This document shows positions 6,349-42,686 of a DNA stretch of 43,345 nt, one piece after another. The position numbers and the translations under genes were made by a program. Positions within the stretch are counted from its first letter, which is position 1. Each line of letters begins with the position of its first letter. The notes beneath the pieces were generated by a model. It had not been told where the DNA came from and did no database searches. It saw nothing but the letters and a program-made list of their open reading frames with translations. Source of the DNA: Escherichia phage AV102. The stretch lies in the sequence record OR352933.1; one strand, 5' to 3'.

Positions 6349-6656
6349 TAGACAATTCCTTCTAGTAAGTCCTCAGAGTCTGAACCACTAATCTTGTTTA
6401 AAATCTCTTTCTTACGCGCCTCTCTGCGCGCCGCTAGTTCGTCATCGAATTCATCACGTAGCTCCTGCATCTCCTCGGAATCTGCATCGGCGGTGATGTC
6501 ATTGTCTTTCAGGAACTTGGCAATAACAGATTTATCGGCAGCCGGTAAAGGGACCGCATCTTCCCCGGCCTGACGCAGCTCCTCAATGAGCGCCTCCGTG
6601 AACATTCGGTGCAGGTCACTGAGTCTGCTACGCGTTCCTGCCTTGGATACAGCCAT
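6348..6656 (-). CDS. Terminase small subunit (DNA maturase A), putative
   Basis: 102 aa acidic protein immediately upstream of and overlapping the large terminase; position equivalent to T7 gp18. Confidence 0.55.
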   Translation of the reverse strand: MAVSKAGTRSRLSDLHRMFTEALIEELRQAGEDAVPLPAADKSVIAKFLKDNDITADADSEEMQELRDEFDDELAARREARKKEILNKISGSDSEDLLEGIV

Positions 6657-8219: not shown

Positions 8220-11200
8220 TTAATCGTCTCCGAAGTTATTGATGATAGCTCTCGTAGGTGCGAATTCCTGGACCAATGGGACCTGCTTAGTGAAGGTCTG
8301 GATATCCATATTTCCAGTAGCCAGGTCCTGTACCGCCCCCAGTAGACCCGTAACGTAACCCATAGACGCCAGCGAGTGACGTGGAGAGTCCCCAGTGAAG
8401 ATATCCTGCAGAAGCGAGATACCGCCGATGGCGCTCATACCCATAACCGACTCAGCGATAAGCTTCTGAGTGTCGGCCTCTTTGCCGTCCATACCGTGCT
8501 TCGCTATAGTAGCGAGTAGCATCAGCGGGAACTGGTACGCCATGATGTGTGCAACCCCAATCCACCCAGCATCGTTCAGTTCTCGGCGCAGAATCTTGTT
8601 GGTGGCAGCCAGGGCGAAGCTCTGGTAGCCAACGATTACTTTACCAATAGGGTTAAACTGTGCGAAGTGTGAGGTCTCACCGGTACGTACTTGCTGCACC
8701 AGATAATCCATCATTCTGGTACCTACCACCTCAATTTGCATTTGCAGGTCCGGCTGGAACATAGCACCAGGATTAGCTTTGTTAGCAGCAATAGCCCGGT
8801 CAGCGATTTCACGAGTAAGACCGAAACGTTCCAGACGCTTAAACGCCTCAGCGTCGCCCTTGAACATCTGCTGGAGTTCATCCGCTACAATACCTGAGTT
8901 AAGGTTAACCTGCAGTCGATGTACCATACTCATACCGTTGACGTGACGCGCAGCCTGTCCAACGTTCTGGGTGACGTTAAACCAGGAAGCCTGACGGGTC
9001 AGGTCCAAGTTATCGTCTGCGTAGGTATTCAGCCAGCGGAAGCGCATCTCCTTCTGGATACTGCCACGTAGGATTGTATCCAGGCGACTAGCCATGTCCG
9101 GATTACGAATAGCTACGGCACCCTCTTTAAACCAGGGCTGCTCACGCATACTGCGGAGTACTCGGGACATACCAAACTCTTTCAGCGCTAGAGCGGTGTC
9201 AGTAAGCTGGTACAACCCAGAGTTCTTAAGCATGGTAGCGTTGGCCATGTTACCGGCTGCACGGAGCAGGTCCGGCATTTGACCGGCGTCGGCTGGTGCT
9301 CCACCCAGGATAAAGTCAATGGTGTCATTAACGGTCTTCTCCCACTTACCCGAATCGGCTAGGGCGTGTTTGGACTCGTTAATCATCGTCTCCAGCATCT
9401 TGAGGTCAGATACCCCAGCATAAGCCATACCTACACGACCTGACATACGATTGGTGTAACCGTGCATTACCTTGGCTACATCAGTATCCATCAGGTCCTG
9501 CATACGCATAGCCTGACCATCCACGATGTACTCTTTGTCCATGTTGAAGCGGGTACGTTGACGGAGGTTCTTAGCAGGCGAGGTAGCGCCAGATTCTCGG
9601 ACATTACCTGCCAAGAAACTCTGGATTGCACTCTCGTCTACGCCAGCATTACGCATGGCCATAACCACTTCATCATTACCCATACCATTGATGAGTTGCT
9701 TCCACATAGGACCAGAGGCCGAGGAGCGTCCGTTGTAGATACCATCAACCATCTCCTTAGCAACACGTTGAACGACCTCAGGTTCCATAGACGGATACAC
9801 GTCACGTAATGCCTGGCGGAATAAATCTCGGTAGTTATCCAGGGAGCGACCGTTCGCAATACCTTGGCGCATCTTATCGTAGCTGTACTGGCGTGGGAAG
9901 TAGTAGTCTGATTTAATCAGAGTACCTTCATCCACTAAACCGGCAGCGGTCATGTGGTCATGCCACTTACTAGCCCAACCAGAGTTGCGATACGCCTCAA
10001 CAAGCGGAACTAAGTCAGAGTCCGGCAGAGGTACAGGGCGTCCATTAACCTCAGCGCTGTATGCAGAGTCCAAATAACGGCCCAAGCGGTCTTCTAAGTC
10101 AGCGCGAGCTGCTCGGAAGTTGCTACGATGGAAGAAGCGGTCCGTGAAACCTACACCTTTGGCCTTGAGGGCACCAAGTATAGCATCCTCAACTACACTG
10201 GCACTAGCGTCCATCTCCAACGTAAGATTACGTTTGAAGTCCACCACAGACGGTTTACGACCGCCTACAGCAGTAGCGTCAGATACTAATAAGCGTGCCA
10301 GGTCCTCACTACCCTCTGCGATGTTATCATACAGGGAGAACATAGTGGCGAACTTGCGCTTAGCAGTTTCCATCATAGCTTGGGCCTTCAAGGCCTCATG
10401 CTTAACCGATGTATCCGCCAAGTCCTGGAAGGCCTCACTCCGGAAGCTCTGAGCTTGGTCTGCGTAGTCCTTTGCGGTCCACTTGACAGCGTCCTCGTAC
10501 GCGTCCAGAACATCCTCCAGGGCCGAACCCTTGGTACGGACCCCAAGCGCATTCATGATGTACTCACCAATCTGGCGGAGCATGCTTTTACCGGTAGGGG
10601 ATTTAGTTCTAGAGAGGTATTCTACCCACTCAGGGCTGTCGCCTAGTCCGGCCAGCATCTCGTGCACGTCACTGGCATAATACTTAAATTTATCACTAAG
10701 AGTTGAATCTGCTGCTATTGCAGCGCGCACCTCTTCCAGCTTACTAGCAATTTCAGGATTCTGCTTGATGGCTCTGGTGGTGGCAGCGTGAATCAACTCG
10801 TGCACTGCTACTCGGCTAGTGTCCGCATCCATAGCACGCAGAGCATCCCCGGCAGTAGTCCAGGTACTTCCGTTCGCTTTCTTAGGGGCACGTAAAGATA
10901 TAAAACCCCTATCAGTTGTTGATGCTGGTGAAAATCCATAGTGACTACGGTTAGAAGAACCGGCCACCAGTTTAAAGTCGATATCCTGTACTGCGTCACC
11001 CAGGGTGTCCAGGATAGCCTTCTGACCTTTAGATAAGTGTTCAGAGGTCTTGAGGAAACGGACTACGTCCTGCGCTTTCATGTTAACAGCAGCAGTGTTA
11101 TTCCGGCGAACTTGGATAGGTTCATCCAGTACCTTAGTGAGTATTGTGTCCCCTTCTCCTACTCCTGTAACATTAGCATCCCTTGCTGTACGAGTTGTGG

Positions 11201-14667: not shown

Positions 14668-15249
14668 TTACCAGGTGTGTATTTTGCTATTACCCTTGCT
14701 GCCCCATAGGTCATACAAGAATGAATTATCTGCTGCAGGTTCCGGAGCAGTGTCGGTACTATCGGGAGTACTCTTGGATAATTCATTCCCTATGTATTGT
14801 CCGAGCAACTGACCACCGAAGCCTAACGCAGCGTTGAACATCTTATCGTACCCACTCTCCAGGTCCATATTGGCTAGCCCACTATCTACGGCCTTATCTA
14901 CCATCATTCGGTAGCCCTCTTCCTGAGTGGCTTGCTGGGCCCGGATTCCAGATATCTGACGATCTGCTACTGTATTCACGGTTGCTACTGCATCCTTAAC
15001 AGACGCCCCCATAGTACCGGACGCAGCAGCTTGCAGGCCTACCTGACTCTGTGCTTGCAGCTTCTGCTGTTGAACGTTGAACAGGGCAACCTCAGTCCGA
15101 TCCCTGGACTGAGCACGTTGCAGCGCAATATCGTTTAACTGCTTCGCTGTCTGCTGAATTACTGCTTTGTTACGTGCTTTAGCAACCTCGATCTGTGCAC
15201 CAGCACCAAGCAGCTTAGTGCCCGCTAGGGCAGCGACGGCCCACCACAT
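14668..15249 (-). CDS. Internal virion protein, gp14-like
   Basis: Position after tail tubular B. Start moved to the Met at 15249 (RBS GGAGGA upstream, ATG next to the gp12-like stop); the track ORF extends to 15306 inside the upstream gene. Confidence 0.55.
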   Translation of the reverse strand: MWWAVAALAGTKLLGAGAQIEVAKARNKAVIQQTAKQLNDIALQRAQSRDRTEVALFNVQQQKLQAQSQVGLQAAASGTMGASVKDAVATVNTVADRQISGIRAQQATQEEGYRMMVDKAVDSGLANMDLESGYDKMFNAALGFGGQLLGQYIGNELSKSTPDSTDTAPEPAADNSFLYDLWGSKGNSKIHTW

Positions 15250-15250
15250 A

Positions 15251-17629
15251 TTAAATCCTCCGTCTGCGTTGGTTGTAGCGCAGGATATAAGAGATATCCA
15301 GCACATTCAGCTCCTGAGAGCCTTTTGTATACAAAGTGATTTCGGTAGTGTCCGCGTTAGTACGGCACGGGACTGTGATGGTAGCCAAGTCCATACGCAA
15401 GGTCTGCCCCAACGTCAGCTCCTTGGAGTTCATCAAGATACCTGTGAGTTCTCCACTCCAGTCAACATCCCGAGGTGTATCAGTTACATGAACATCAAAG
15501 TGCCCAGAGTTACGTACAGCTACATCCAGACGCAACAAACGCACGTGCCCACTACCAACTAGCTTATCATTCTGATCCCGAAGTACTGGGGTAGTCAGAG
15601 TGAATGCGCTATTGTACCTGCGACCCAGGATATACTGCCCATCAGGAACACCCCGCACTACACTGAGCTGGTTTGTACCGGCAATATCCTTGAGACCCAC
15701 CTCAGTAGGTCCCATAGGACTGTTGGCTGGATACGTGAGGATTAGGTCCTCTTTGTACGTATCTGCCCAACCCACCGGGCGCAGCACTGCGGGCACCTCT
15801 AGCACCCCTCCGCTTACGGTAACTTGTGTCTGCAAGTCCGAGTAGGCGTTAGTGTACTCCATGCCGAGGTTGTATCCTTCGCGTGGGTCCATAGACAGAA
15901 TCAGGAGTTTATTGCCAGGGCTTGGCCCTTGTAGGTACAGGAACACCTCATCTTCGAGCGCCTGCACGCTCAGGATATTATACGGGAATGTCCACTGGTG
16001 CCAGGCTGCTTGCACCTTACCGCCATCCTGTCCACCCCACATGAACTCATATACCAGCAGACTCTTGCGCTGTCCGGACATACGCACAAACGCCATATTA
16101 GTGACACTGGAGTTTTGCATCTGCAGCACCCTCCCAGGGATATACCGAGGGAGGTGCACAGTCGCATCCTGCGTAGTATATTGTGAGGCAGTATACGGGG
16201 ATGGGATAAGCTCCAGAATACCCGCATAGCTGTTGTTGCGCTTGTTTGGGTAAATCACAGTCTGCCCAGCCATTACTGGCGTTACTCGGCTGTCACATTC
16301 GTAGGTGCTAGTGATGCTAATACTGGCGTTAGTTGGAGTAAGCACTACTGACCCAGGCACTACAGCCTGCATGCTATTTGCAAACAGAACCAAGTCTCGG
16401 TTGAATTGTATAGCTGTACGGTACACGGAATCCTGAGCAGATGCCGAGCTAATGCTGATACGGTCTGTATCCAGCAGAGAAGTTACTGTAGAGCGATAGA
16501 ATCGCTGATACAGCCCAGAGGCTGACATGTCCACTACACTACCACTAAGCAGCACCAGACGGCCCTGGAATGCTGCTATACCTGTAATGTAACCATTCTC
16601 AATAAACCCAGGATCCTGATTGTTTTCGTCGTTCCCAGCAAGACGCCCCTCCCATTCACGGGCAATGATGTTATCATCTGATGCCAACTCCCTGGGCATG
16701 TTAGTAATTTTGGAGATGCTACCATAGGCTCCAACTTCAGACCAGGTGCGGGAATTATAGTCGAACTGATACCACGCTGTCTCAGCTGAAGCTGTACCCA
16801 CTTGGCACATCGTACCGTGAGCCTGTGCTGGTAGCTGTGCAGGTAGGTCCTGTTCTTGATGAACCCTACTCTGCCCAGATGCCACGGCGTAGGTGTCTCC
16901 AGCAGACGTACTAACTACGAGATTGGGCAGCCCGGATATATACATATACCCCTCAAAACGGCTTATACTTCCACCAGCCGCCGTAATAGCTGAGCCTATA
17001 CCCTGACCATTAGGATCTCCGTCGATTAAGGCCCTAACTACATACGACGCGGAAACCCACTCTGCGGATTCGCTGTGACTTGCATCAGGGGCATTGTAAT
17101 AACCTGATACGGAACCACCTGTCCAGGATACAGTAACCTCCCAGCGCTTCTGGAAGGCCACTGTCTTGATGTAGAAGAATCCCGTGGTGCTCGGGTCAAT
17201 TCGACCGGTGTTGTCCACGGTCGCATTTGGGGCCATCTCCGTATTCAGGATGTAGGTCAACCCAGCAATGCTCGCAGTCTGGATAGAGGTTTGACCTACC
17301 GTTGTTACGAAGTACGGGTCGTTCCCGCTGTTTACAATAGATTTACCGTCCTTGGACAATAGCCACCAATTACCGTTACTGGTGTTAATCAGCAGGTGCC
17401 TACCGTCGGAACCACGCTCAACGTATTCTGTATACAGGGAGTCTAGGTCCGGATTGTCAATACTACTCTCCCATACAATCTCTGCTGGGGGTCGTCTACG
17501 TATTCCGGATACCGGGTCACTGAGCATGTTCAGTTGCGCCCCAAGTTGCCCAGGCTGGCGCTCTCTTGGAATCTGCTGGGACACGCCCTGGAGCAAACTC
17601 TGAATGGTACCCTCTAGGGACTGGGCCAT
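15251..17629 (-). CDS. Tail tubular protein B (gp12-like)
   Basis: 792 aa, almost the size of T7 gp12 (794 aa); position after tubular protein A. Confidence 0.8.
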   Translation of the reverse strand: MAQSLEGTIQSLLQGVSQQIPRERQPGQLGAQLNMLSDPVSGIRRRPPAEIVWESSIDNPDLDSLYTEYVERGSDGRHLLINTSNGNWWLLSKDGKSIVNSGNDPYFVTTVGQTSIQTASIAGLTYILNTEMAPNATVDNTGRIDPSTTGFFYIKTVAFQKRWEVTVSWTGGSVSGYYNAPDASHSESAEWVSASYVVRALIDGDPNGQGIGSAITAAGGSISRFEGYMYISGLPNLVVSTSAGDTYAVASGQSRVHQEQDLPAQLPAQAHGTMCQVGTASAETAWYQFDYNSRTWSEVGAYGSISKITNMPRELASDDNIIAREWEGRLAGNDENNQDPGFIENGYITGIAAFQGRLVLLSGSVVDMSASGLYQRFYRSTVTSLLDTDRISISSASAQDSVYRTAIQFNRDLVLFANSMQAVVPGSVVLTPTNASISITSTYECDSRVTPVMAGQTVIYPNKRNNSYAGILELIPSPYTASQYTTQDATVHLPRYIPGRVLQMQNSSVTNMAFVRMSGQRKSLLVYEFMWGGQDGGKVQAAWHQWTFPYNILSVQALEDEVFLYLQGPSPGNKLLILSMDPREGYNLGMEYTNAYSDLQTQVTVSGGVLEVPAVLRPVGWADTYKEDLILTYPANSPMGPTEVGLKDIAGTNQLSVVRGVPDGQYILGRRYNSAFTLTTPVLRDQNDKLVGSGHVRLLRLDVAVRNSGHFDVHVTDTPRDVDWSGELTGILMNSKELTLGQTLRMDLATITVPCRTNADTTEITLYTKGSQELNVLDISYILRYNQRRRRI

Positions 17630-17638
17630 GTGCCCTCC

Positions 17639-18199
17639 TTAAATCATGAAGCGTGCACGACGAATACGACGTGCGAATCTAGTCTTACTGGTACTGTACT
17701 TCTGGTTACGCAGATGCTCTCGCAACACCAGGGACTTGTACCGCTCTGCCTCTGCAGCGTAGTTGGCGTAGTTACCGTCACTGCCGAGGTCGTTCAGGTA
17801 CACCTGCGCAGCAGTGTAGTTTGCAATCCACATGGCGGCATGCTCCGGAAGATCCTCAAAGTTAAGGTCCAGTACCACCTTAATCTTAACAGGGGAATCG
17901 AAGTACTCGTCCTGCTCGACCAGGTTGTAAAGGTTCCCGTCGCGTACGCCGTACTTATTGTCGGAGCACGCATCATACACAGCTAGCTGGTTCCATGGAA
18001 TTTTAATAAAACCATCAGTCGTAGGAGTAACCTCCCGCTCAACTACGTTGAACCAGTAACCGGTACTGAGCAATCCTCGGCGATTACGCGCGAGCGCAGA
18101 GCGTGCTAACCCCGCACTAGGGTTTGAAGTGTTGATATCCATAACGCGAGACTCCCCCAGGGCTTCCAGCGTCAAATTAATGGCGTCTAACTCTCTCAT
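17639..18199 (-). CDS. Tail tubular protein A (gp11-like)
   Basis: Start moved to MRELDAINLTLEALG at 18199 (RBS AGAGGA); the track ORF start at 18325 runs through the terminator and poly-A/T tract and is an artefact. Confidence 0.75.
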   Translation of the reverse strand: MRELDAINLTLEALGESRVMDINTSNPSAGLARSALARNRRGLLSTGYWFNVVEREVTPTTDGFIKIPWNQLAVYDACSDNKYGVRDGNLYNLVEQDEYFDSPVKIKVVLDLNFEDLPEHAAMWIANYTAAQVYLNDLGSDGNYANYAAEAERYKSLVLREHLRNQKYSTSKTRFARRIRRARFMI

Positions 18200-18244
18200 A
18201 TTTGTTCCTCTATTAAAGACCCCTAGGACCCTTAAGACAGGGAC

Positions 18245-18290
18245 AAAAAAAAAAAAAAAAGCCCCCGGCACCCGAAGGCACCAGGGGCGC
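18245..18290 (-). terminator. Intrinsic terminator after the capsid module: 12-bp stem with UUCG tetraloop followed by U16
   Basis: Minus transcript GCCCCUGGUGCC-UUCG-GGUGCCGGGGGC then 16 U (plus-strand A16 at 18245-18260); three G-U wobble pairs mean it folds well only on the minus transcript. Position equivalent to T7 Tphi. Confidence 0.8.
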
Positions 18291-18293
18291 ATA

Positions 18294-18491
18294 TTACTCT
18301 TTAGTTTCTGTACCTGCTGCTGCATCAGCTACTGCATCAACAGCTTTGCGGGTACGCTTAGTAGCTTTGCGGCCAGATTCGACCGAACCTACTTGAATGT
18401 GCTTCGCTACCTCAGAGGCGGCTTTTACCGCCTCACGTTGAGCAGCGTTGGCCTGGAGAGTCTCCAGACCGAACACGGCGATCACTGCCAT
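18294..18491 (-). CDS. Hypothetical small protein (65 aa) between capsid gene and terminator
   Basis: Own RBS GGAGG 4-5 nt before the ATG; Ala/Lys-rich. Confidence 0.5.
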   Translation of the reverse strand: MAVIAVFGLETLQANAAQREAVKAASEVAKHIQVGSVESGRKATKRTRKAVDAVADAAAGTETKE

Positions 18492-18502
18492 TTAACCTCC
18501 AA

Positions 18503-19522
18503 TTAGGGCTTGGTGGTGAAGGTGAACTTAGTCACTGCCGCTGTATCAGGACGACGCAGACCGATGTTATACATCGCGTAGCAGTCCAGAACGTTGTTGA
18601 ACTCGCGCTGGTCATCCCAGATACGAGAAGTGAATGGTTTAGCTTCTACCGTCACCAAGGTCTTGGACTTACTGAAAGTTACCATGCGACATTTCGCATC
18701 ATCCTCAGTGACCGTGTAAGCGGTACCCAGCGGATGCGTACCAGCCTCAGTTGGGAACTCAGTACACTCTACTACCGGCACACCGTTCATCTTCACAACC
18801 CGGCGGTTCTTGTAACCATCGTCGTTGGTTGCGCCGAACTCAATATTTAACAGCTTCGGATGCTCCAGCAGACGCGAATAGGTATCGACATCCACCAGGG
18901 TAATCATGTCCGCCAGCGGAGTCTTACGCTTGATGAGTTCATCAATACCAGCCTTGTGGGCCAGGTTGATGTTCATGGCGTTCGCTTCCATCTCAGCCTG
19001 AGTCAGCTGCTTATCTGGAGTACTACCCGCTACGAGGATGGAGGCACCGACTTCAATACCGTCGTTGAATGCAGGCTTCAGGTGCGCTGGTGCAACCCAG
19101 GAACGGCCCTTGATGAGCTGAATCAGGTGCGCCTGGTCAAAGGTCTCCGCGAACTCTGAACCGTTGTTCTGACCTAGCTCAGAGAGGAAGTCCGGACCAG
19201 TCCAGTCGTCCTGGTAGTCGATTGGGTTACGGATGTACAGCACCGTATCCACTACGATAATCATCTTATCGTTACGGACCGGAGTGCTATCCAGCGCTTC
19301 ACCAGAACGACGACCCTTCACCGCAGAGGTATTCAGGCGGTCGATACGGTAGGTGTTAGAGCCGCTGATAGAGCGCTGGCTAGAGAGGCCTAGGAACAGC
19401 GCCTGGTACTGGAAGCGGGTGTCCACTTCGTTCTGGTACACTTCCAGGTGAATATCGACGTCGGACGCCGCGCCGCCCCAATGTGGACGAGTGTCACCAG
19501 CTTTATAAATAGTATCTGCCAT
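18503..19522 (-). CDS. Major capsid protein
   Basis: 339 aa; position after scaffold; size typical of T7-like gp10. Confidence 0.85.
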   Translation of the reverse strand: MADTIYKAGDTRPHWGGAASDVDIHLEVYQNEVDTRFQYQALFLGLSSQRSISGSNTYRIDRLNTSAVKGRRSGEALDSTPVRNDKMIIVVDTVLYIRNPIDYQDDWTGPDFLSELGQNNGSEFAETFDQAHLIQLIKGRSWVAPAHLKPAFNDGIEVGASILVAGSTPDKQLTQAEMEANAMNINLAHKAGIDELIKRKTPLADMITLVDVDTYSRLLEHPKLLNIEFGATNDDGYKNRRVVKMNGVPVVECTEFPTEAGTHPLGTAYTVTEDDAKCRMVTFSKSKTLVTVEAKPFTSRIWDDQREFNNVLDCYAMYNIGLRRPDTAAVTKFTFTTKP

Positions 19523-19546: not shown

Positions 19547-20419
19547 TTAAAGACCTACGCGTTTACCGGCTTCACGGCGTGCGAGTAAATCGTGGTAACG
19601 TTGACGGAACTGCTGGGATTCCAAGCTTCGGTTCCCTGCCTCCTGACGCAGTTTAGCATACTCTACTTTGAAGTCCGCAGCGGACAAGGCATTGTTGCCA
19701 GGGACACCACGTACCAATGGATTTGAGGTCTTGATAAGACCCATATCACGGCAGTAACCTGCCACCAACTCTGCTGCCTGTTTAAGCTCACCAGAATCAG
19801 CCAGGACTCGTGCAGCCTTACGCAGAGGCTCGGGAGCCTTGGAATTAAACAGCTGCGCTGCTACCTCCCAATTCTCCTTCCCACCTACGAGGTCATACGC
19901 TTCCTGTACAGCCTTAGTGGCTTGTCCCACCTGGTCTTCAAGATACGCCTTAGCCAGCAGCTCTGCATACGCAGCGTGCTCACCGAAGCGCTCCTTGATG
20001 AAGGCCGTATCGATTAGGTTAGGGTCCTGATACTCCAGGGCCTTACTAAGTGCCCGCACCATGTCCGAGTCAGTTAACCCAGAGACTTGCTTCAACATCG
20101 CTACACCGGCATCAATCGTCGGGTTGCCTGTTTGAGCCAGCTCCTGAGGCTGCTCTTTGGCGCTTTCGCCACCCTTGTCATTAAGGGCCGCTTTTAGGGC
20201 TTCGATATCCAGAGGAATCTGTGCTGGAGCTACTGCCGGAACTACTGCAGGTGCAGGGGAATCTTTGCCCTGTTGCTGCTGCATAGAGATCTGCGCATCC
20301 TGCACACCCTGATTATTTGGGGCGTTAAGAGGAGCGCCCAGGCCCGGAATCTTAGGGCCGCCTTGGTTCTCTACCTGGGTAGTTGTTACGTTAGTTTGAG
20401 TGGTTTCTACGCCGTCCAT
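19547..20419 (-). CDS. Scaffolding protein
   Basis: 290 aa, acidic, Ala/Gln-rich; lies between portal and capsid. Confidence 0.7.
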   Translation of the reverse strand: MDGVETTQTNVTTTQVENQGGPKIPGLGAPLNAPNNQGVQDAQISMQQQQGKDSPAPAVVPAVAPAQIPLDIEALKAALNDKGGESAKEQPQELAQTGNPTIDAGVAMLKQVSGLTDSDMVRALSKALEYQDPNLIDTAFIKERFGEHAAYAELLAKAYLEDQVGQATKAVQEAYDLVGGKENWEVAAQLFNSKAPEPLRKAARVLADSGELKQAAELVAGYCRDMGLIKTSNPLVRGVPGNNALSAADFKVEYAKLRQEAGNRSLESQQFRQRYHDLLARREAGKRVGL

Positions 20420-20433
20420 TTATACCTCTGTTG

Positions 20434-22029
20434 TTAGCCCGGTAACAGGCCTAGTTGTTGTCCTGCTACGGCAGGATCCGCTGCCTGGAGATCTTGTACC
20501 TGCGACTGTGCTTGTGCTGCTGATGCCGCCGCTGCATTATCTTGAACTTGCTGCTTCTCTTGCAGTTGCTCTTCTGTGAGCATGAACGGTCCACTTACAA
20601 TACCGTATGCATCCAAGTACCAATCTACGCATGCATCTTCATTAAAGCGAGGAGTAAGCTGTTTGAGCACAGGAATAGCCAGCTGCATAGCCTGGGTAGC
20701 TTCTAGCAGTTTATCTGCTGCTGCTGCTTTAGCTAGTGCTGCAGTACCTACCATCACGTTGATATCCACTACACCCTCGGTGAGGTACACCTTGAACTTA
20801 GGATATGCCACGATAGTATACAGGTACGCGAGCTTACGCAGCCAGGAGTCACTGAGGATGCTGAATCCACCACCCATAGCGTACTCTGCCTCTTTAGCAT
20901 TCTGACGAATCTCATAAGCAGTTACACGCTCACCCTGTCGAGCATTGCCGGTGTACATAAACGCACGAGCCAGTTTCTGCTCAAGCATCTGAATGTCGCT
21001 AGCAATCCACTGAATCTTTTGAGCTGCACCGCCTTCATAAGCTGTGACAGGAGACTTGGTGTTACCATTACTACCACCACCACCAACCTGTACGGCCTCA
21101 CCGGTCTCGGCTTGAGAGAACTCGTCAACGTCCAAGCCGGAACTGGCATCGACCATAGGGATAAGACGGGAGGCTTCAATCTCGTAGTTGGTCAACGCTT
21201 CGGTCAGCACAGACAGTCGCGCAAAGTCACCCGCATAGTCTTCCACCAGACCGCGTCCATAGTGCTCACCGTTAACCAGGTTCCACACCAATACGTTATA
21301 CGGAAGTTCCAGCTCAGGGTAGGTGCTGCTCTCGCCTAGGCGACGACCATCAACTTCTTGATACACCTCATAGCTTACTGCTTCTTCTCCATTTGGAAGG
21401 TGCTTAATCTTACGACAAGCGGCAGTGTAGATATCAATGTCGCTGTATGGGTCCCGGCCGTTGTAGTATGTTCTTTGGATATCTTCTGGGAGGTCCTGGA
21501 TGCTGGCGCGCTCTTTGATAATGAGTCGCAGCACGTTCCCGCTACCATCCCTTCGAACGGTAAAGTTACGGACCGAGTAGATAATGGATTTCCCGGTTCT
21601 TTCATCGATATACTCCAATGCGTTCCCGGTGATAAGCAGCAACTTCACAGCTTGAAGCTTAGCAGCATACCCATCCTTCTCAAACACCTTCTGAGAGGCG
21701 GTGTTCTCTACCTCGGATAAACGGGATTCCGCAGTGCTGGAACTTCCCAGACTACTAATAAAGTTGTCAAGGGCTGCACTCTTAGAGAACCGAAAGAAGC
21801 TAGTACCTTGCGGGAATAATGCACCTACAATTTTAGTCGCTGCTGTATTGACCAGCTGAGCACCTGTACTCTGATAGTCTCGACTAAGCTGCATACGCCG
21901 CCCATCAGTATAGAGCTCTCGGGTAAAGATTGTAGGTAGCGTCCACTCAGCAAACTTCTCTGACGCATCCAGTACGCCAGCATCCTGGTCCCCCAGGAAT
22001 AGTTCCGCTAATGTCTTTTTATAGTCCAA
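20434..22029 (-). CDS. Portal (head-tail connector) protein
   Basis: 531 aa (T7 gp8 is 536 aa); first large gene of the structural module. Confidence 0.85.
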   Translation of the reverse strand: MDYKKTLAELFLGDQDAGVLDASEKFAEWTLPTIFTRELYTDGRRMQLSRDYQSTGAQLVNTAATKIVGALFPQGTSFFRFSKSAALDNFISSLGSSSTAESRLSEVENTASQKVFEKDGYAAKLQAVKLLLITGNALEYIDERTGKSIIYSVRNFTVRRDGSGNVLRLIIKERASIQDLPEDIQRTYYNGRDPYSDIDIYTAACRKIKHLPNGEEAVSYEVYQEVDGRRLGESSTYPELELPYNVLVWNLVNGEHYGRGLVEDYAGDFARLSVLTEALTNYEIEASRLIPMVDASSGLDVDEFSQAETGEAVQVGGGGSNGNTKSPVTAYEGGAAQKIQWIASDIQMLEQKLARAFMYTGNARQGERVTAYEIRQNAKEAEYAMGGGFSILSDSWLRKLAYLYTIVAYPKFKVYLTEGVVDINVMVGTAALAKAAAADKLLEATQAMQLAIPVLKQLTPRFNEDACVDWYLDAYGIVSGPFMLTEEQLQEKQQVQDNAAAASAAQAQSQVQDLQAADPAVAGQQLGLLPG

Positions 22030-22302: not shown

Positions 22303-22742
22303 GCTGACCTCACTAAATGGTAAGTTGTTTTGTAAGTATTATCCGATGTATTGCGACTAATGGCGATGCGCCCAGCTCGCATACACTTAGCGATTGCTTG
22401 CAGACCCTTCATAACTACAAGCATTGCCTCACTGTTTCCTGGTTTCAATACGAAGAAGTCTGTGTACAACACAGGCTCTACGTAATGGCAGTCCTCTACA
22501 GCTTCTGGGTAGTAACTGACAGCGCCTACTAAGTCGCCCCGAGAGTCATAGACCCCTAGTATATACTGTTTACCTAGTATACTTTTTAGTACTCTCCAAT
22601 AGTGTTGCTCTGTGGTAAGGCCCCGACTAATGCCGTGACCAAGTTCGTGCAGAGCTCTCACTGCTTTTCTGATATCATCGTGATTATGCAGAACTTTTAG
22701 GGAGTAAGTATTAGGTGTTTTACTAGTGTGTTTTAACTTCAT
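22299..22742 (-). CDS. Hypothetical protein with HELGH (HExxH) motif
   Basis: Start set at MKLKHTSK (22742; AGGAG 6 nt upstream); the track N-terminal extension to 22805 overlaps the upstream gene. HELGH lies near the N-terminus. Confidence 0.5.
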   Translation of the reverse strand: MKLKHTSKTPNTYSLKVLHNHDDIRKAVRALHELGHGISRGLTTEQHYWRVLKSILGKQYILGVYDSRGDLVGAVSYYPEAVEDCHYVEPVLYTDFFVLKPGNSEAMLVVMKGLQAIAKCMRAGRIAISRNTSDNTYKTTYHLVRSA

Positions 22743-22759
22743 TCCTACTCCTGTAACAT
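22743..22759 (-). promoter_or_regulatory. Copy 3 of the exact 17-bp element, between the SLOG-like gene and the next ORF
   Basis: Plus-strand tcctactcctgtaacat; minus-strand AGGAG within it also serves as the RBS of the downstream ORF. Confidence 0.45.
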
Positions 22760-22765
22760 TAAATT

Positions 22766-23104
22766 TTAGTAGGGTTCCCAAACCGGTATACCTGCCTTTC
22801 TGCACAGTTCAACCATACCAGCGGTCCCCCTTCCTCCAGGAAAGGCAACACAGTATTCAGGAAAGGCCAGGGATATCATGGCGGCGTTCCTACGTATACC
22901 CGCAGATTTACCTTGTGCATCCCACAGTGCGGGCATACGCAGAACAAATACACCAGATTCCAGGGCCCACCTATCTGCCAGTGCATCCGCCCCTCTGGCA
23001 TTTCCATGTATCACTACAGATGGCTTGTTTGGCAGCATATCCATTGCGGTTTTTAGTGCTAGGTAGTCTGAGTAATCACGCCCACCAGTTACCAGTACTC
23101 TCAT
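22766..23104 (-). CDS. Small SLOG/DprA/LOG-like Rossmann-fold protein (DUF2493-like), function unknown
   Basis: 112 aa; RVLVTGGRDY N-terminal glycine motif, HGNARGADALADRWA (DprA-like), PGGRGTAGMVE (LOG-like PGGxGTxxE). Confidence 0.5.
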   Translation of the reverse strand: MRVLVTGGRDYSDYLALKTAMDMLPNKPSVVIHGNARGADALADRWALESGVFVLRMPALWDAQGKSAGIRRNAAMISLAFPEYCVAFPGGRGTAGMVELCRKAGIPVWEPY

Positions 23105-23113
23105 ACGATTCCC

Positions 23114-25582
23114 TCAACAAAAGAAGAATGGAGATTCAAGCACTTGTCGGATGTCCAAAGTACCGATTGCAGGCATCTCTAAATCTGTGAGGTCTGCCCC
23201 TGCTTCGGCAGCTGCCCGGGTAATATCTCCAAGCAGATCGTGCTCCTCGTACAACTTCACAAACTGTTCACGGATATGTCGGTGCAGGGCATCTACATCA
23301 ACCGCGTGAGTAGCCATTGAGTCGTGAATCGGGACAATATCCAGACCCTCTGCAGCACAGAGCACCATCATGAGGTGTGTGCTATCTAGGCTATGCACAA
23401 AGTTCGGGGCAATACCAGAGGCAGCCTTGCGCTTATTACAGGTCTTAAAGTCACGGTTGTGCACCAGCACGGCAGATAGGTTCATACAATCAATACGTAC
23501 ACGCACCTCCTCTCGCTGAGAGTACCGGTTCATCACCAGCCCACCTAGCGGGGTCTTCCACTGCAGATGCTGACTAGCAGGTACACGCCTAGCGAGGTTC
23601 TGCAGATACCCCATAGCTGCTGCTGCTGCTGGGTTAGCTTCCTCAATAGCGCTACGCATTCTAGGGGCAAGGTAGCAGGATAAGTTCCAGAGACTGTGCG
23701 TGTCTGTTCCTTCATACCCCTCTTCACAGGCCCCTGCAAAGATGTAGTCGCTGCAGCTGCGCACCGTGGCGCTGTAGAAGTAGGTCATGCTAGGACGCTT
23801 GGTCATGTTTCGAGTAATCTCGTTCTCTCTCCAGTACGTGCTCTGGATAACGAAATCCTCTTTGTCCAGGTCCAGTATCACCTTCTCGTCCGTACGGCGC
23901 TTCACGTCCATATACAGATCCGCTTTCTTGTCGTTACCCTCCCAGTACAGGTTCGTCAGGCGTCCGCCTACAGGGTCTCTCAGGAGCGCTGAGAGGTGCT
24001 GCCCACCTGAGTTTGTAGCATCCATAGCAACTGGGATTCGGCTAATATACTCTTCTGGGCATCCAGAACGTACAGCATTAACCAAGTCGATAGCGGATGC
24101 TAGGAAGCACCAAGGGCTGTCGGCGGAGGTAAAAGCAGGGCAATCAAAAGGAGAATCCGCGAGCTGCTCAATCTCTGCAAAGTTTGCATCAACCCAAGCT
24201 GCGCGGTCTTCGAATAGGGTTTTGTCATAACCAAAGCAGGTAGCGACGTGCACTTTAAGCCAGAATAACCCTCTCTCTCCCAGAGGTTTACCTCGTCCGA
24301 ATTCAAGAAGTGCCTTCTGCAAATCAGAACCTTGGGGGTGCAGTGAGGACTTGAAGTACAGCCGGTACCGCCAATCCACACAGGTTGGGAAGTACAGGGC
24401 TTTCTCATCTTTGAATTCCTCTGCCATCTCTAGCGTGGTCAATAGACTACGTAGTTGCGACACACGTTTACGGTCGGCGCTGTACCATAAGGACATACGC
24501 GTCTTCCACTCTCCGAAGCGGTCGAGTTCCTCCTCGGTGTAATTCTCTTTTGGTACACCATCTAAGTACCACTCAGGTTTCGGATCTGGCACTGAGCGCG
24601 GCATACCTACACCAATACCTAAGGCCCGTGCTTCTTGTACCAGTTCCAGTATTCGCTTATTAATGCGATAAGGAGTTTCCTGCGCCTTATTAAGTGCCTT
24701 CTTGATACCGTCCGCAGACTTAAATGCTTCCGCTACTTCACGCAGTCTGGCGCGGTCAATGTGTGAGTTGTGGTACGTCCCACGGTTATCGATTGGGGTG
24801 AGGTATCCACCATCCCACAATGTAGTATGTGGCACCGGCGGTACCAGCATCGGAGGCTTCATAGTTACAGTGTCAGCAGATTCCACTAACTGCTGAAATG
24901 CTTCCATAACATTATCTGCGGGATAGAGCATACTCAAGTTCCCGCTACCAGTCTTCCACTGGAACAGCCCCGTCTCAAACACTGCGGAACACAGCAGACG
25001 TCCCACAGCAATATTCTGAGCGTTGGTCCAAGGCTCATGCCCATAGTGCACGTTCTCAGCACTGGCGCGGAGCGTACGCAGAATGTGCGTAGGCGACTTA
25101 GTACGGCGCTCAGTGAGGTATTCATATACCCGGTCCATATATGCTGGGGCAACATTACGCAGTTGTAGGGCCAGCAGCTCTGACTGTACATTCCTACCCA
25201 GAGCGGACATCACTGCCTGAGCTGTCTGGCGGCGACTGGCGGACTCACCAGGGGCGACACTGAACGCCTCAAACATTGTGCACAGGCTCAGAGTAGTTAG
25301 GACATCCAAGGGGACTAAGCGTAGGAATCGGCGGTACTTTCCACCGATACCCGGGGCTTTGACGTTACGCATTTCCTCAATGGCTGCAGAGGCCACGTCG
25401 TACGCAGAGGTTAGCATGCGCTGAGCCATAGGCAGGTTCATAATCCCGCCGTTTTGCAGAGCATCGGTAATCAATTTGCGAGCACGTTCAATGCCGCGAA
25501 TCTTGTAGGTCTCTTCAAGCTCCAACTGACGTTCCACCAGCGCTTCATCTGGTACTACAACCGTATTCAGGGCGCTAATCAT
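23114..25582 (-). CDS. Single-subunit DNA-dependent RNA polymerase (T7-like)
   Basis: 822 aa; AMDATNSGGQHLSALLRD and IHDSMATHA resemble conserved T7 RNA polymerase catalytic motifs; located late, next to the structural genes. Confidence 0.9.
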   Translation of the reverse strand: MISALNTVVVPDEALVERQLELEETYKIRGIERARKLITDALQNGGIMNLPMAQRMLTSAYDVASAAIEEMRNVKAPGIGGKYRRFLRLVPLDVLTTLSLCTMFEAFSVAPGESASRRQTAQAVMSALGRNVQSELLALQLRNVAPAYMDRVYEYLTERRTKSPTHILRTLRASAENVHYGHEPWTNAQNIAVGRLLCSAVFETGLFQWKTGSGNLSMLYPADNVMEAFQQLVESADTVTMKPPMLVPPVPHTTLWDGGYLTPIDNRGTYHNSHIDRARLREVAEAFKSADGIKKALNKAQETPYRINKRILELVQEARALGIGVGMPRSVPDPKPEWYLDGVPKENYTEEELDRFGEWKTRMSLWYSADRKRVSQLRSLLTTLEMAEEFKDEKALYFPTCVDWRYRLYFKSSLHPQGSDLQKALLEFGRGKPLGERGLFWLKVHVATCFGYDKTLFEDRAAWVDANFAEIEQLADSPFDCPAFTSADSPWCFLASAIDLVNAVRSGCPEEYISRIPVAMDATNSGGQHLSALLRDPVGGRLTNLYWEGNDKKADLYMDVKRRTDEKVILDLDKEDFVIQSTYWRENEITRNMTKRPSMTYFYSATVRSCSDYIFAGACEEGYEGTDTHSLWNLSCYLAPRMRSAIEEANPAAAAAMGYLQNLARRVPASQHLQWKTPLGGLVMNRYSQREEVRVRIDCMNLSAVLVHNRDFKTCNKRKAASGIAPNFVHSLDSTHLMMVLCAAEGLDIVPIHDSMATHAVDVDALHRHIREQFVKLYEEHDLLGDITRAAAEAGADLTDLEMPAIGTLDIRQVLESPFFFC

Positions 25583-26529: not shown

Positions 26530-26948
26530 TTAATAATCTCCCGTGCTTTGCGTCGTGCCCTGGCCTTGCGGGCCTTGAGCTTCTGTGCCTGTGCCTGTTC
26601 TTCCGGTGTCTTATATGTATAGTATAGCATATCCGTGGGTTCACGGTCTAGGTAGTCGGCAACCCTACGCAGAGATTCAGCAATAGCGCTAGAAGATTGC
26701 ATGCTACCAACAATCCAACGCCCAGCCGCAGAGGCCACTTTCCCCTCTCCACCATTGCATGAGCGATGCAGAGCACCCCGGATGCGCCCAGTAATGTGAC
26801 AATGGTCAACAACAACAGAATCACCAGTCACGCCTCTGATTGTAAAGTCCAATGGTTTACCGCAGAGCAGGCACAACCCACCCTGGTCCTTAGCTAGCTT
26901 AATAGCTACTGAGCGTATCTGCGCCCGGGTAATCTTACGCAGCGCCAT
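26526..26948 (-). CDS. Endonuclease VII-like Holliday junction resolvase
   Basis: VVVDHCHITGRIRGALHRSCN matches the endonuclease VII zinc-binding and catalytic signature. Confidence 0.75.
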   Translation of the reverse strand: MALRKITRAQIRSVAIKLAKDQGGLCLLCGKPLDFTIRGVTGDSVVVDHCHITGRIRGALHRSCNGGEGKVASAAGRWIVGSMQSSSAIAESLRRVADYLDREPTDMLYYTYKTPEEQAQAQKLKARKARARRKAREIIK

Positions 26949-27302: not shown

Positions 27303-28227
27303 TGTCTGGGTGCTCCTGTATCCACTGTATGTGCTGTTTATGGTACTCGTGCAGCGAATGCACCCAGTCACGTAGACTGGGAGTAGTCAACAGTGACATC
27401 AGATACTGATAGGCAGAATCTGATTGGGAGCGTCTCAGCCACAGGCATTCTGCCTCTGCGAGTACGTCTTGGTTGTTTCTAGCATAAGCCGCTACAACGA
27501 ACTCTGCGGCGTCTTGCTCTGAGGTAATAGGGTAGATAGCATCAAAGGCCGTTCGCTTGCCACAGGGCTTCCCATCAAGCAACGTGATGCCTTTGACGTT
27601 ATCTGCGTCGTCTCCTGCTAGCATCTGCCACCAGAAGAACTTCAACCCGTGTGCTCGTACAGGCATAGCCTGGGTGTCATCCCACTTAATCCATCCGAAG
27701 GGATCCTCCAGTGCAGGCCACACTGTACCGGTTGAGATATCAAACCGGGCCATAGGGCTGAGCCAGGAGTCCTTGTCCTGTGACATTAGTATACCGCGCT
27801 CACCGAAAGCGTATGAGTCCATTATGAATAGATCATCCGCCTCGAAGAAGTCGCTACTAACTACTTGGATACCTTGCTCAGAATACTGGTCCGGATTATC
27901 AATCAGGTGCCGCTTCAAAGGGGCCTTCAGTGGTAGCTCCTGCCGGTTAGCTCGCTGCCCCTGGTACGGCTTAGCTGTGGGTAGGTGCCAACGCAGACAC
28001 TTAGCACAACCAGCAGGAGTCAGATACGCCACTGCTTCCGAGCAGCCCACCAAGAACATGTCCTCAAGCACTAGCTGATAGAAGCGACGTATCGCCGTAT
28101 CCAAACGTTTCACTGTAGCGGCGGCTTTGTACACGCAAAAATCTGCGTCATATAGCAGAATCTTCCCAGAGTTCTGCGGGGCTAGCTGCTCCCCGAGCTG
28201 GGACAAGTCAACCCCGTTGATAATCAT
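27259..28227 (-). CDS. 5'-3' exonuclease (T7 gp6-like, FEN family)
   Basis: 322 aa; N-terminal ILLYDADFCVYKAA resembles the T7 gene 6 exonuclease N-terminus with acidic metal ligands. Confidence 0.75.
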   Translation of the reverse strand: MIINGVDLSQLGEQLAPQNSGKILLYDADFCVYKAAATVKRLDTAIRRFYQLVLEDMFLVGCSEAVAYLTPAGCAKCLRWHLPTAKPYQGQRANRQELPLKAPLKRHLIDNPDQYSEQGIQVVSSDFFEADDLFIMDSYAFGERGILMSQDKDSWLSPMARFDISTGTVWPALEDPFGWIKWDDTQAMPVRAHGLKFFWWQMLAGDDADNVKGITLLDGKPCGKRTAFDAIYPITSEQDAAEFVVAAYARNNQDVLAEAECLWLRRSQSDSAYQYLMSLLTTPSLRDWVHSLHEYHKQHIQWIQEHPDNGEDVCEGNEPAGD

Positions 28228-29233: not shown

Positions 29234-30103
29234 TTAGGCTTGCGGTGCAGCAGGCGCTGCGGGGGCTGCAGGAGCCACTGGCGCTGCCGGTGCTACAGGG
29301 GCACTTGGTGCTGCTGGTGCTACTGGAGCACTCGGTGCCGCTGGTGCAGTGGGCGCAGCCGGGGCTGCGGGGGCTGCAGGAGCAGCCGGGGCCTGCATAG
29401 ACTGAGGACTCGGAACCGAACCAGCATTCAGCATAATATCCAACGCACTGCCTGGGAAGTCTACGGCCTTGTACATGTCCTCCTGAATCCAGTTTTTACT
29501 CTTACCATCATCCTTGGTACCTTCGATATACAAGCTATCCCAGGTTTCTTTGGTAGGGTTGTTCCACAAGAACAGCTTAATCTCGGAAGCATCCAGCTCA
29601 GGCATTTTAATCGGCTCACCGGTATTCGGGTCGAACTTCGGAATCGGACGGATTGCCGCGAGGTCTACAATGTTGGACTTCTTACCCGCTGCGCTGGTGT
29701 GCTCATCCACCTGGAATACAAATGCTTGTCCCAGTCGCTGTGCAGCATGCTTAATACTGCCATCGTAGTTGAGCTTGTCGAAGAACTTCTTGAAGCCCGC
29801 ACGCTCAAAGTTGCTAATAGTCATCGGATACGGACGGATACGCTTCACCTCACCGTTCGGGCCGTACACCACAATCCCGATGCGAACGTTCGCCGCGGCA
29901 GGCTTACCGGTAGGCTTACCACCTTTAGTCGGCAGGCGCTTACCAATTTCCACGTACTCAGTAAAGTAACCGTAGTACTCACCCTTCGGCAGAAGCACAT
30001 CCTCATACGCACCACCCTGGGCGGTTTCGGTCATATCAACTTCTTGGGTTTCAATCGCAGCAGCAACCAGGGAGTTCAGAGTGTCCAGTGCATTCATAGT
30101 CAT
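29234..30103 (-). CDS. Hypothetical protein with C-terminal Pro-Ala repeat tail; possibly a DNA-binding or SSB-like protein by position
   Basis: 289 aa; last ~50 residues are PAAPAAPAAP-type repeats ending in PQA and stop; position between replication genes. Confidence 0.55.
   Translation of the reverse strand: MTMNALDTLNSLVAAAIETQEVDMTETAQGGAYEDVLLPKGEYYGYFTEYVEIGKRLPTKGGKPTGKPAAANVRIGIVVYGPNGEVKRIRPYPMTISNFERAGFKKFFDKLNYDGSIKHAAQRLGQAFVFQVDEHTSAAGKKSNIVDLAAIRPIPKFDPNTGEPIKMPELDASEIKLFLWNNPTKETWDSLYIEGTKDDGKSKNWIQEDMYKAVDFPGSALDIMLNAGSVPSPQSMQAPAAPAAPAAPAAPTAPAAPSAPVAPAAPSAPVAPAAPVAPAAPAAPAAPQA
29237..29395 (-). repeat. Tandem GCN/CCN-rich nucleotide repeats encoding the Pro-Ala tail
   Basis: Repeated gctgcaggagc / ggtgctgctggtgc units on the plus strand within the CDS 3' end. 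Confidence 0.7.
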
Positions 30104-30154
30104 ATAATTATGTCCTCGTTTAGTTCAAATAATATTTACGTGCAGATGCAGGGC

Positions 30155-30319
30155 TTAGCGTTTTGAAGCGACGGCGGCGGCAACGAACACCAGGATTATA
30201 GCTAGCGCAGCAGGACCCCAGAACGGGAGCAGCACCCACAGCCAAGACCAGGCGATAACTCCGGTCAGTTTCAGGGTTACGAAGATAAGGCCTAGTACAG
30301 AACAGATTCCCATTTTCAT
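30155..30319 (-). CDS. Small two-TMD membrane protein (54 aa), not in the ORF track
   Basis: My translation: MKMGICSVLGLIFVTLKLTGVIAWSWLWVLLPFWGPAALAIILVFVAAAVASKR; AGGAG 6 nt upstream. Confidence 0.45.
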   Translation of the reverse strand: MKMGICSVLGLIFVTLKLTGVIAWSWLWVLLPFWGPAALAIILVFVAAAVASKR

Positions 30320-31563: not shown

Positions 31564-31584
31564 TCCTACTCGTATCACATTAAT
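31564..31584 (-). promoter_or_regulatory. Diverged copy of the conserved element (minus TAATGTGATACGAGTAGGA) in the intergenic region upstream of the phosphoesterase gene
   Basis: 14 of 17 core positions match the exact element; lies in the only sizeable intergenic gap of the replication module (31543-31704), about 22 nt upstream of the gene start. Confidence 0.45.
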
Positions 31585-41846: not shown

Positions 41847-41870
41847 TTGAAACCTCGTTGTTAACGGTAT

Positions 41871-41901
41871 TCACATAGCGCCCCGCAGGACGCTATAGGC
41901 T
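41871..41901 (-). promoter_or_regulatory. Conserved early-region hairpin element, copy 1
   Basis: Minus transcript AGCCUAUAGCGUCC-UGCG-GGGCGCUAUGUGA: 10-bp stem including G-U pairs, so strand-specific. Confidence 0.55.
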
Positions 41902-42619: not shown

Positions 42620-42655
42620 GATGCACCTCTTTGATTGGTTGTTTAGGTAATTACT

Positions 42656-42686
42656 TCACATAGCACCCCATAGGATGCTATAGGCT
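42656..42686 (-). promoter_or_regulatory. Conserved early-region hairpin element, copy 2
   Basis: Minus transcript AGCCUAUAGCAUCC-UAUG-GGGUGCUAUGUGA: same 10-bp stem as copy 1 with one G-C pair replaced by A-U. Confidence 0.55.

Follow-up and report, generated by a model that had tools for sequence, protein, structure and literature searches.

Probable late intrinsic terminator at the capsid-tail junction of a Drulisvirus genome: structure, conservation and counterparts in other Autographiviridae

Gene organization around the capsid-tail junction

The stretch of DNA analysed here (hereafter the window) comprises the 43,345 nucleotides of Escherichia phage AV102 (OR352933.1), and all of its long ORFs are located on the minus strand. 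In the direction of transcription, the annotation of relatives and profile matches place the genes for the RNA polymerase (23114-25582), the portal (20434-22029) and the scaffold (19547-20419), followed by those for the major capsid protein (18503-19522; phrog_267, E = 1.5e-94, in line with the annotation of relatives) and for a 65-aa protein (18294-18491; phrog_7403, E = 2.3e-36). Next come the genes for tail tubular protein A (17639-18199; phrog_446, E = 1.6e-61, also annotated in relatives), tail tubular protein B (15251-17629; annotation of relatives and profile matches) and a protein assigned by a family match to the T7 gp14 family (14668-15306). The gap between the 65-aa gene and the tail tubular protein A gene contains a hairpin and a long run of T residues. 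A sequence-only reading of this DNA had placed a terminator after the capsid gene and a 65-aa ORF and before tail tubular protein A, and the matches to phrog_267, phrog_7403 and phrog_446 bear out this position.

The 65-aa gene, the last in the putative terminated unit, is an annotated CDS in phages Minorna, phiHAO78-1 and SFN6B, and its identities at the three codon positions follow the pattern 0.95/0.95/0.81. The stem of the hairpin starts 5 nt past its TAA stop codon. The first gene downstream of the terminator is that of tail tubular protein A. A listed 228-aa ORF (17639-18325) runs across the terminator, but the true start of this gene is the ATG at 18199-18197, which is also the annotated start in Minorna and phiHAO78-1. 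The ATG lies 61 nt from the end of the stem and 45 nt from the end of the T tract.

In about one fifth of the relatives, a 155-aa HNH(-AP2) homing endonuclease gene is inserted right where the tail tubular protein A gene begins, approximately 45 nt past the T tract (twelve loci, e.g. positions 1794-2261 of locus L128). The inserted gene appropriates the Shine-Dalgarno sequence, the ATG and the first three codons (MRE) of the tail tubular protein A gene, whose annotated start in such genomes falls, in a different frame, within the 3' end of the HNH gene; in SFN6B this gives a 21-aa N-terminal extension. One further relative carries a remnant of the 3' end of the insert only.

Across the region, identity is 95-97% with Escherichia phages EC22.5-2, phiHAO78-1, Minorna and PSK2, and 82-94% with about 290 more phages, mostly Klebsiella phages of the genus Drulisvirus. 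The gene order across the region is the same as in Drulisvirus minorna (96% identity), and the terminator separates the KP34p43 homologue from tail tubular protein A. The window represents a genome of Drulisvirus (KP34-like; Autographiviridae, Slopekvirinae). It appears to be complete, with a circular permutation with respect to KP34: the features of the KP34 left end, i.e. a promoter of the TGATG type (KP34 nt 475; window 489-474) and a sigma-70 promoter, TTGACA..TAGATT (KP34 nt 931; window 36-8), are found at the end and not at the start of its minus strand. Two repeats were also recorded. The 21-nt sequence AGGGATAGCTCTAGGGATAGC occurs in six copies within 254-929, and positions 29244-29401 comprise about 17 units of 9-nt period, GGNGCNGCN-like on the plus strand. 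The latter array is located inside overlapping long ORFs (29234-30103 on the minus and 29240-30166 on the plus strand), and on the coding minus strand it would encode a 3-residue repeat in the C-terminal part of the protein.

Structure and strand-specificity of the hairpin

Direct reading of the minus strand (5' to 3') gives GCCCCTGGTGCC at 18288-18277, TTCG at 18276-18273, GGTGCCGGGGGC at 18272-18261 and 16 T residues at 18260-18245, followed by GTCCC. The two arms of the hairpin (18261-18288) form 12 uninterrupted base pairs, nine G-C and three G.U (U6.G, U9.G and G10.U), and the UUCG tetraloop is closed by a C-G pair (cUUCGg). The T16 tract, U16 in RNA, begins at the base next to the last stem pair; it would constitute the release tract and is at the same time a homopolymer of variable length. 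The element thus has the organization of an intrinsic or T7 class I terminator: a stable, GC-rich stem-loop in the nascent RNA, a U run directly 3' of it, and a location on the coding strand in an intergenic gap past a stop codon.

In ViennaRNA, the minimum-energy and the centroid structure of the minus-strand RNA are both the 12-bp hairpin, with a free energy of -27.6 kcal/mol (z = -3.47), and none of 200 shuffled sequences was equally stable. The plus-strand RNA reaches only -16.9 kcal/mol (z = -1.1) and its stem is broken, because the G.U pairs become C/A mismatches. Moreover, the plus strand has no 3' U tract, its A16 being located upstream (5') of the stem. The weak plus-strand fold and the position of A16 make the element strand-specific, as had been proposed from the G-U pairs.

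A consensus terminator scan of the whole window yielded 28 weak candidates, about as many terminator-like sites as in shuffled sequences, and the hairpin ranked first among them as a clear outlier. It has 12 pairs, nine of them G-C, and a tail of ten or more T residues, and is the only candidate in the window combining more than 10 pairs with a full T run; all the others have 5-10 pairs and poor tails. In a separate test, the longest perfect stem directly preceding a tract with at least 8 T in 10 was determined in the window and in 200 dinucleotide-preserving shuffles. The best stem of the window has 12 bp, that of the shuffles did not exceed 11 bp in any of the 200 and 9 bp in 199 of them. 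The A16/T16 run is the longest homopolymer of the window (the runner-up is C9), and the longest in the shuffles was 11. The hairpin and T tract at 18245-18288 are far above chance and form the sole strong terminator-like site in the window. Direct reading, folding, the scan and the shuffles agree that the earlier description, a textbook intrinsic terminator with a 12-bp stem, UUCG loop and U16, is exact.

Two other types of RNA signal were considered and rejected. The processing sites of RNase III in T7-like phages need an imperfect duplex of about 20 bp or more, and the 12-bp stem cannot be extended into its flanks. The T7 class II signal, in which ATCTGTT precedes a U run and a hairpin is unnecessary, is absent near 18245-18290; this motif occurs in the window only at 6525, 30301 and 32827, which corresponds to its chance frequency. 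A search of the whole window against Rfam at gathering thresholds matched no family.

A terminator known in the genus Drulisvirus

The hairpin has been described before. Eriksson et al. 2015 (Viruses 7:1804, Table 3; PMC4411677) listed 'Rho-independent terminators' in phages KP34, SU503, SU552A, NTUH-K2044-K1-1 and F19; the element is located between KP34p43 and p44, and consists of GCCCCTGGTGCCTTCGGGTGCCAGGGGC followed by T9-10. The window hairpin is identical to it in the 22-nt 5' arm and loop, and in the 3' arm the sole difference is A/G at the position corresponding to 18266. A full-text literature search with this 22-mer returned the paper of Eriksson et al. as its sole match. In GenBank, a 'terminator' feature is annotated at the same place in Minorna, KP34, KP-Rio/2015 and Pone.

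The exact 22-nt 5' arm and loop were found in 62 Drulisvirus contigs of IMG/VR, one copy per contig; most of these contigs are about 40-45 kb long, which is consistent with full-length genomes. A 101-nt sequence of the element matched 245 GenBank phage records, namely 230 of Klebsiella, 9 of Escherichia, 2 of Shigella and 2 of Acinetobacter phages, and 2 without a host in the name. A host origin of the hairpin was also considered, and no exact match was found in 185,579 bacterial and archaeal species genomes (one genome each).

The terminator of the genus can be summarized as GCCCCTGGTGCCTTCGGGTGCC(A/G)GGGGC and a T run, with the same flanking genes, on the same strand and in one copy per genome, and that of the window conforms to it. 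It differs in carrying G at 18266 (a U.G pair, as opposed to the U-A pair of the majority), which it has in common with 8-10 of about 60 relatives, and in its T16, as opposed to the T8-T10 usual in the genus. The terminator is therefore already known, having been published in 2015 and annotated in GenBank for the genus, and only the unusually long T tract (16 residues versus the usual 9) is new.

Length of the T tract

In the 62 IMG/VR contigs, the T run has 5-12 residues with a mode of 9 (8-10 in 55 contigs), with one exception, a contig bearing T18 and T19 at its two ends, i.e. a run of at least 18-19. Among the closest relatives of the window, the tract is T8-T10. The only lengths comparable to T16 are those of this contig and of Klebsiella phage PWKp1 from Brazil (T15), a distant member of the genus with the A variant of the stem. 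The tract of the window is thus unusual but not unique, and the distribution of lengths suggests that long tracts arose more than once. A range from 5 to at least 19 among relatives is as expected of a slippage-prone homopolymer, which is what the sequence-only reading had taken the run to be. A variation of T7-T9 after a terminator was also reported for close Yersinia T7-like phages (PMC5923468). On the other hand, T16 itself may be an assembly error.

Seven full-length Drulisvirus contigs of IMG/VR start exactly at the T tract of the terminator, and in several of them the hairpin is found about 100 nt from the opposite end of the contig. The tract evidently troubles assemblers, since these contigs end exactly there, and the hairpin with its homopolymer is a recurrent assembly breakpoint. 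Such breaks, together with the unstable length of the tract and the homing HNH endonuclease gene inserted 45 nt downstream in about one fifth of the relatives, could also be taken as signs of a DNA-level element (a replication, recombination or nicking signal, or a homopolymer hotspot), the RNA hairpin being incidental. We find this hardly credible. The three G.U pairs are good only in the minus-strand RNA and would be mismatches in the arms of a DNA cruciform, the orientation and the site directly past a stop codon are those of a terminator, and contig breaks at a homopolymer beside a hairpin are an expected assembly artefact.

The RNA:DNA hybrid in the transcribing polymerase holds only about 8 U residues. 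For this reason T9 and T16 are expected to differ little in function.

Promoters and the late transcription unit

A repeat search of the window revealed five minus-strand occurrences of the 19-mer TAATGTTACAGGAGTAGGA, which begins with the 16-nt strong promoter of the KP34 RNA polymerase, T(A/G)ATGTTACAGGAGTA. Lu et al. 2019 (PMC6834552) defined this promoter by in vitro transcription and 5'-RACE and located it in KP34 at nt 475, 22197 (just past the RNA polymerase gene) and 33721. An exact match in the window, TAATGTTACAGGAGTA, is present at 22746-22761 on the minus strand, with an expected start site at 22745. The next strong promoter downstream, also an exact match, lies at 11160-11175 (minus strand) inside the gene of a 1232-aa internal virion protein and corresponds to KP34 nt 33721-33736. 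A near-exact match, the TGATG variant, occupies 474-489 on the minus strand. The copies of the strong promoter have a chance expectation of none in the window. In addition, the weak KP34 promoter has a sequence match at 23142-23161 (minus strand), and degenerate 19-mers with 3 mismatches are located at 27770-27788 and 31564-31582, both on the minus strand.

The geometry of promoter, terminator and promoter is the same in both genomes: 22197, 26623-26660 and 33721 in KP34, and 22761, 18288-18245 and 11175 in the window. With a promoter at 22761 and the next one at 11175, the terminator would close a unit of approximately 4.5 kb composed of two small ORFs and the portal, scaffold, capsid and 65-aa genes. 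The following strong promoter is 7.07 kb away, and no promoter match with up to 3 mismatches was found between 18245 and 11175. The genes of tail tubular proteins A and B, the gp14-like protein, an 894-aa protein and most of the 1232-aa protein would thus need read-through. Given the degenerate 19-mers elsewhere, an unrecognised weak promoter may lie between 18245 and 11175, which would weaken this argument. A scan for sigma-70 promoters gave fewer promoter-like sites than expected by chance and none of note near the terminator.

The layout is not restricted to KP34-like phages. An ONT-cappable-seq study of the phiKMV-like phage LUZ19 (PMC10914365) reported two promoters past the RNA polymerase gene and another within the structural region, as in KP34. 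A literature search for a transcriptome of Drulisvirus or of a Klebsiella phage found none. As for termination, a figure legend in the KP34 RNA polymerase paper states that a product was expected to end at a T7 class I hairpin terminator in pUC19.

The region of the strong promoter has some features of its own. In KP34, the gap between the stop codon of the RNA polymerase gene and the strong promoter is only 5 nt according to the coordinates of Lu et al. 2019 (PMC6834552). In the window the two are separated by a 112-aa ORF (22766-23104, minus strand) of the YAcAr (YspA/cpYpsA-related SLOG) family (Pfam PF10686, E = 2e-14). If transcription starts directly after the 16-nt promoter as in KP34, the leader would have 3 nt (GGA) before the ATG at 22742, and an AGGAG resembling a Shine-Dalgarno sequence is located within the promoter (region 22740-22761, minus strand). 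Transcripts from the promoter would therefore have almost no leader for the first late ORF, while those that read through from the RNA polymerase gene would include this Shine-Dalgarno-like sequence.

The early region of the window contains two copies (41870-41901 and 42655-42686, minus strand) of another motif, the internally self-complementary 32-nt AGCCTATAGCGTCCT(A/G)CGGGGCGCTATGTGAA. It was predicted to be a phage promoter by Eriksson et al. 2015 (PMC4411677), but was inactive with the KP34 RNA polymerase in vitro according to Lu et al. 2019 (PMC6834552).

Conservation of the terminator and the downstream spacer

Conservation was assessed in an alignment of 1.1 kb from 33 distinct relatives. 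Mean pairwise identity is 99.0% in the hairpin and 98.0% in the 45-nt spacer that follows the T tract, versus 76-86% (capsid), 81% (65-aa gene) and 65-67% (tail tubular protein A) at the third codon positions of the flanking genes. The non-coding hairpin and spacer thus appear to be under a constraint stronger than that on the surrounding proteins, which points to purifying selection. The sole variable position of the stem is 18266, where A/G exchanges a U-A for a U.G pair, and pairing is retained. Except for this switch, the hairpin is invariant within the genus and provides no compensatory double substitutions; covariation within the genus therefore cannot separate RNA structure from sequence as the selected trait, and positional conservation across distant lineages (see below) was used in its place.

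The near-invariant spacer, GTCCCTGTCTTAAGGGTCCTAGGGGTCTTTAATAGAGGAACAAAT (18200-18244, minus strand), reaches from the T tract to the start codon of tail tubular protein A and contains the Shine-Dalgarno sequence AGAGGA (18211-18206). This accounts for the last third of the spacer only, and a plain terminator does not explain its 98% conservation. Several explanations of the spacer were tried and rejected. It has no match to the strong or the weak KP34 promoter, and the resemblance of its segment GTCCTAGGGGTC to the early 32-nt motif is partial and at chance level (4 matches versus 3.2 expected). As a stable RNA structure it performs no better than shuffled sequences.

One may ask whether the hairpin, T tract and spacer act together, in a sequence-specific manner, as a composite regulatory element. 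A phage or host factor might bind or process it and so tune read-through. Another possibility is that the spacer folds in the read-through RNA and masks the Shine-Dalgarno sequence of tail tubular protein A, so that translation is damped in addition to transcription. Identities of 99% and 98% next to 65-86% at flanking synonymous sites speak for such an arrangement, as a generic terminator would tolerate the compensatory change that is seen in a sister clade (see below). Furthermore, UCCCU of the spacer can pair with AGG/AGAGGA of the Shine-Dalgarno region, and both variable positions are compatible with this fold: 18231 G/A keeps its pair with U and 18225 is located in a loop. However, the fold (-13.8 kcal/mol, z = +0.59) is not above shuffles, there is no match in Rfam, no repeats of the spacer were found elsewhere in the window, and in the sister clade the 45-nt spacer is replaced by about 190 nt of unrelated sequence. 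High identity could also come from frequent recombination across a short conserved junction. We therefore regard a composite element as unlikely. It is also quite unlikely, in a more far-reaching form of this proposal, that the terminator and spacer are one element read by the KP34-type RNA polymerase or a phage factor, gating both transcription and translation into the promoter-less 7-kb block, with the expansions of the T tract (T15, T16 and at least T18-19 versus T9) serving as a fast-mutating dial and not representing sequencing noise.

Post-capsid terminators in other Autographiviridae

The sister clade mentioned above was found in IMG/VR and shares 63% identity in tail tubular protein A. 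Directly past the homologous small ORF, it carries GGCCCCGTGCTTCC-TTAACT-GGAGGT(A/G)CGGGGC-T6, a stem of 14-15 bp with a 6-nt loop that has been remodelled save for the outer GCCCC/GGGGC. Ten further lineages of the Autographiviridae were fetched besides this clade. A hairpin with a T tract is present in nine of the 11 lineages sampled, and in the other two there is a hairpin with a weak T tail. Unrelated GC-rich hairpins with T-rich tails lie between the capsid and tail tubular protein A genes of Proteus phage PM75, Vibrio phage VP93, Sphaerotilus phage SnaP-R1 and Acinetobacter phage APK116 (Friunavirus), and likewise in Pseudomonas phage LUZ19v (two hairpins), P. putida phage Luke-3, Ralstonia phage PY04L1 and the T7-like Yersinia phage fPS-9, where the terminator is annotated. 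Pectobacterium phage Nobby_B4 and Caulobacter phage BL199 have a hairpin with a short T tail in the same interval. On this sampling, a terminator after the capsid module seems to be a family-wide trait.

The individual elements differ in detail. The post-capsid stems of phiKMV-like and other Autographiviridae phages are unrelated in sequence to that of the window, although the UUCG tetraloop recurs in VP93 and in the first hairpin of LUZ19. LUZ19 has the promoter layout of KP34, but two tandem hairpins. In Friunavirus and in PY04L1, the terminator is located directly after the capsid gene and before the small ORFs, whereas in the window it follows the 65-aa gene. The tails of several unrelated post-capsid terminators are similar, being built of a T run, G(T/C)(C/G) and a second short T run (six loci, among them L057 at 1504-1540 and L060 at 1548-1590), e.g. 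TTTTTGTCGTTTTG in both PM75 and SnaP-R1 and TTTTTTGCGTTTAGGAG in Luke-3. This common pattern may reflect a shared preference of single-subunit polymerases.

The sequence-only reading had likened the element to Tphi of T7, and with regard to position the comparison holds: the annotated terminator of fPS-9 occupies the same interval, and a hairpin with a T tract is found there in nine of the 11 further lineages. Tphi is a class I terminator, a hairpin with a U run, between gene 10 (capsid) and gene 11 (tail tubular protein A). Genes 11 and 12 of T7 lie between Tphi and the phi13 promoter. As would be the case in the window, these tail-tube genes lack promoters of their own, and read-through is needed as far as the next one. 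In sequence there is no similarity, as the hairpin of fPS-9, with a stem of about 19 bp and a UAAC-type loop (CCUUAACGG loop region), cannot be aligned with the 12-bp UUCG hairpin. The two systems also differ in polymerase and promoter specificity, and in the extra 65-aa gene between the capsid gene and the terminator of the window. The terminator of the window and Tphi are thus analogues by position and mechanism, an analogy supported by the post-capsid hairpins throughout the family, rather than demonstrable homologues.

The range of lineages also bears on the possibility that the hairpin is primarily an mRNA 3'-end stability element or a processing product, i.e. that transcription continues and the hairpin blocks 3'->5' exonucleases after an endonucleolytic cleavage downstream. 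Hairpins that are GC-rich and capped by UUCG are effective barriers to exonucleases, abundance matters most for the capsid message, and a site directly past the last head gene would suit such a role. Stabilization would, however, make the T tract unnecessary, yet every Drulisvirus has at least 5 T, usually 8-10, directly after the stem, and unrelated Autographiviridae keep the tract as well; a 12-bp stem is also too short for an RNase III site. As the primary function, stabilization thus appears very unlikely, although the roles of stabilizer and terminator are not mutually exclusive.

Putative role of the terminator

Taking these observations together, we consider it highly probable that the hairpin and T tract are an intrinsic terminator of late transcription, conserved in Drulisvirus and equivalent to T7 Tphi in position and function. 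From the structure, strand-specificity, position, conservation and promoter matches described above, we infer termination in vivo, the polymerase that is terminated and the efficiency of the process. The phage single-subunit RNA polymerase would start at the strong promoter 22761-22746 and transcribe about 4.5 kb, comprising the two small ORFs and the portal, scaffold, capsid and 65-aa genes. The nascent RNA would then fold into the GC-rich 12-bp hairpin with its very stable cUUCGg loop while the polymerase is located on the weak rU:dA hybrid of the T tract, and hairpin-dependent ('class I') termination would release most transcripts there. Termination would have to be incomplete, since no phage promoter was recognised between the terminator and 11175, and the tail and core genes would be reached by read-through.

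Acting in this way as an attenuator, the terminator would make head mRNA much more abundant than the mRNA for tail and core, which matches the several hundred copies of capsid and scaffold proteins as opposed to about a dozen copies of tail-tube proteins per virion. An excess of capsid-module over tail mRNA had also been predicted by the sequence-only reading, and the KP34 promoter 4.5 kb upstream, with the next one 7 kb downstream, strengthens this prediction. At the 3' end of the released transcripts, the hairpin should in addition guard the capsid message against degradation by 3' exonucleases.

As a discovery, the element carries little weight, having been in the literature since 2015 and in GenBank, while a post-capsid terminator occurs family-wide in T7-like phages. 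It may be of more use in annotation and engineering, as the terminator and the published KP34 promoters define a compact late unit from 22745 to about 18250. In these Klebsiella and E. coli phages, which are used in therapy, the genes for the tail tube and internal core would also depend on read-through of this terminator, which is relevant to payload insertion and to swaps of receptor-binding genes.
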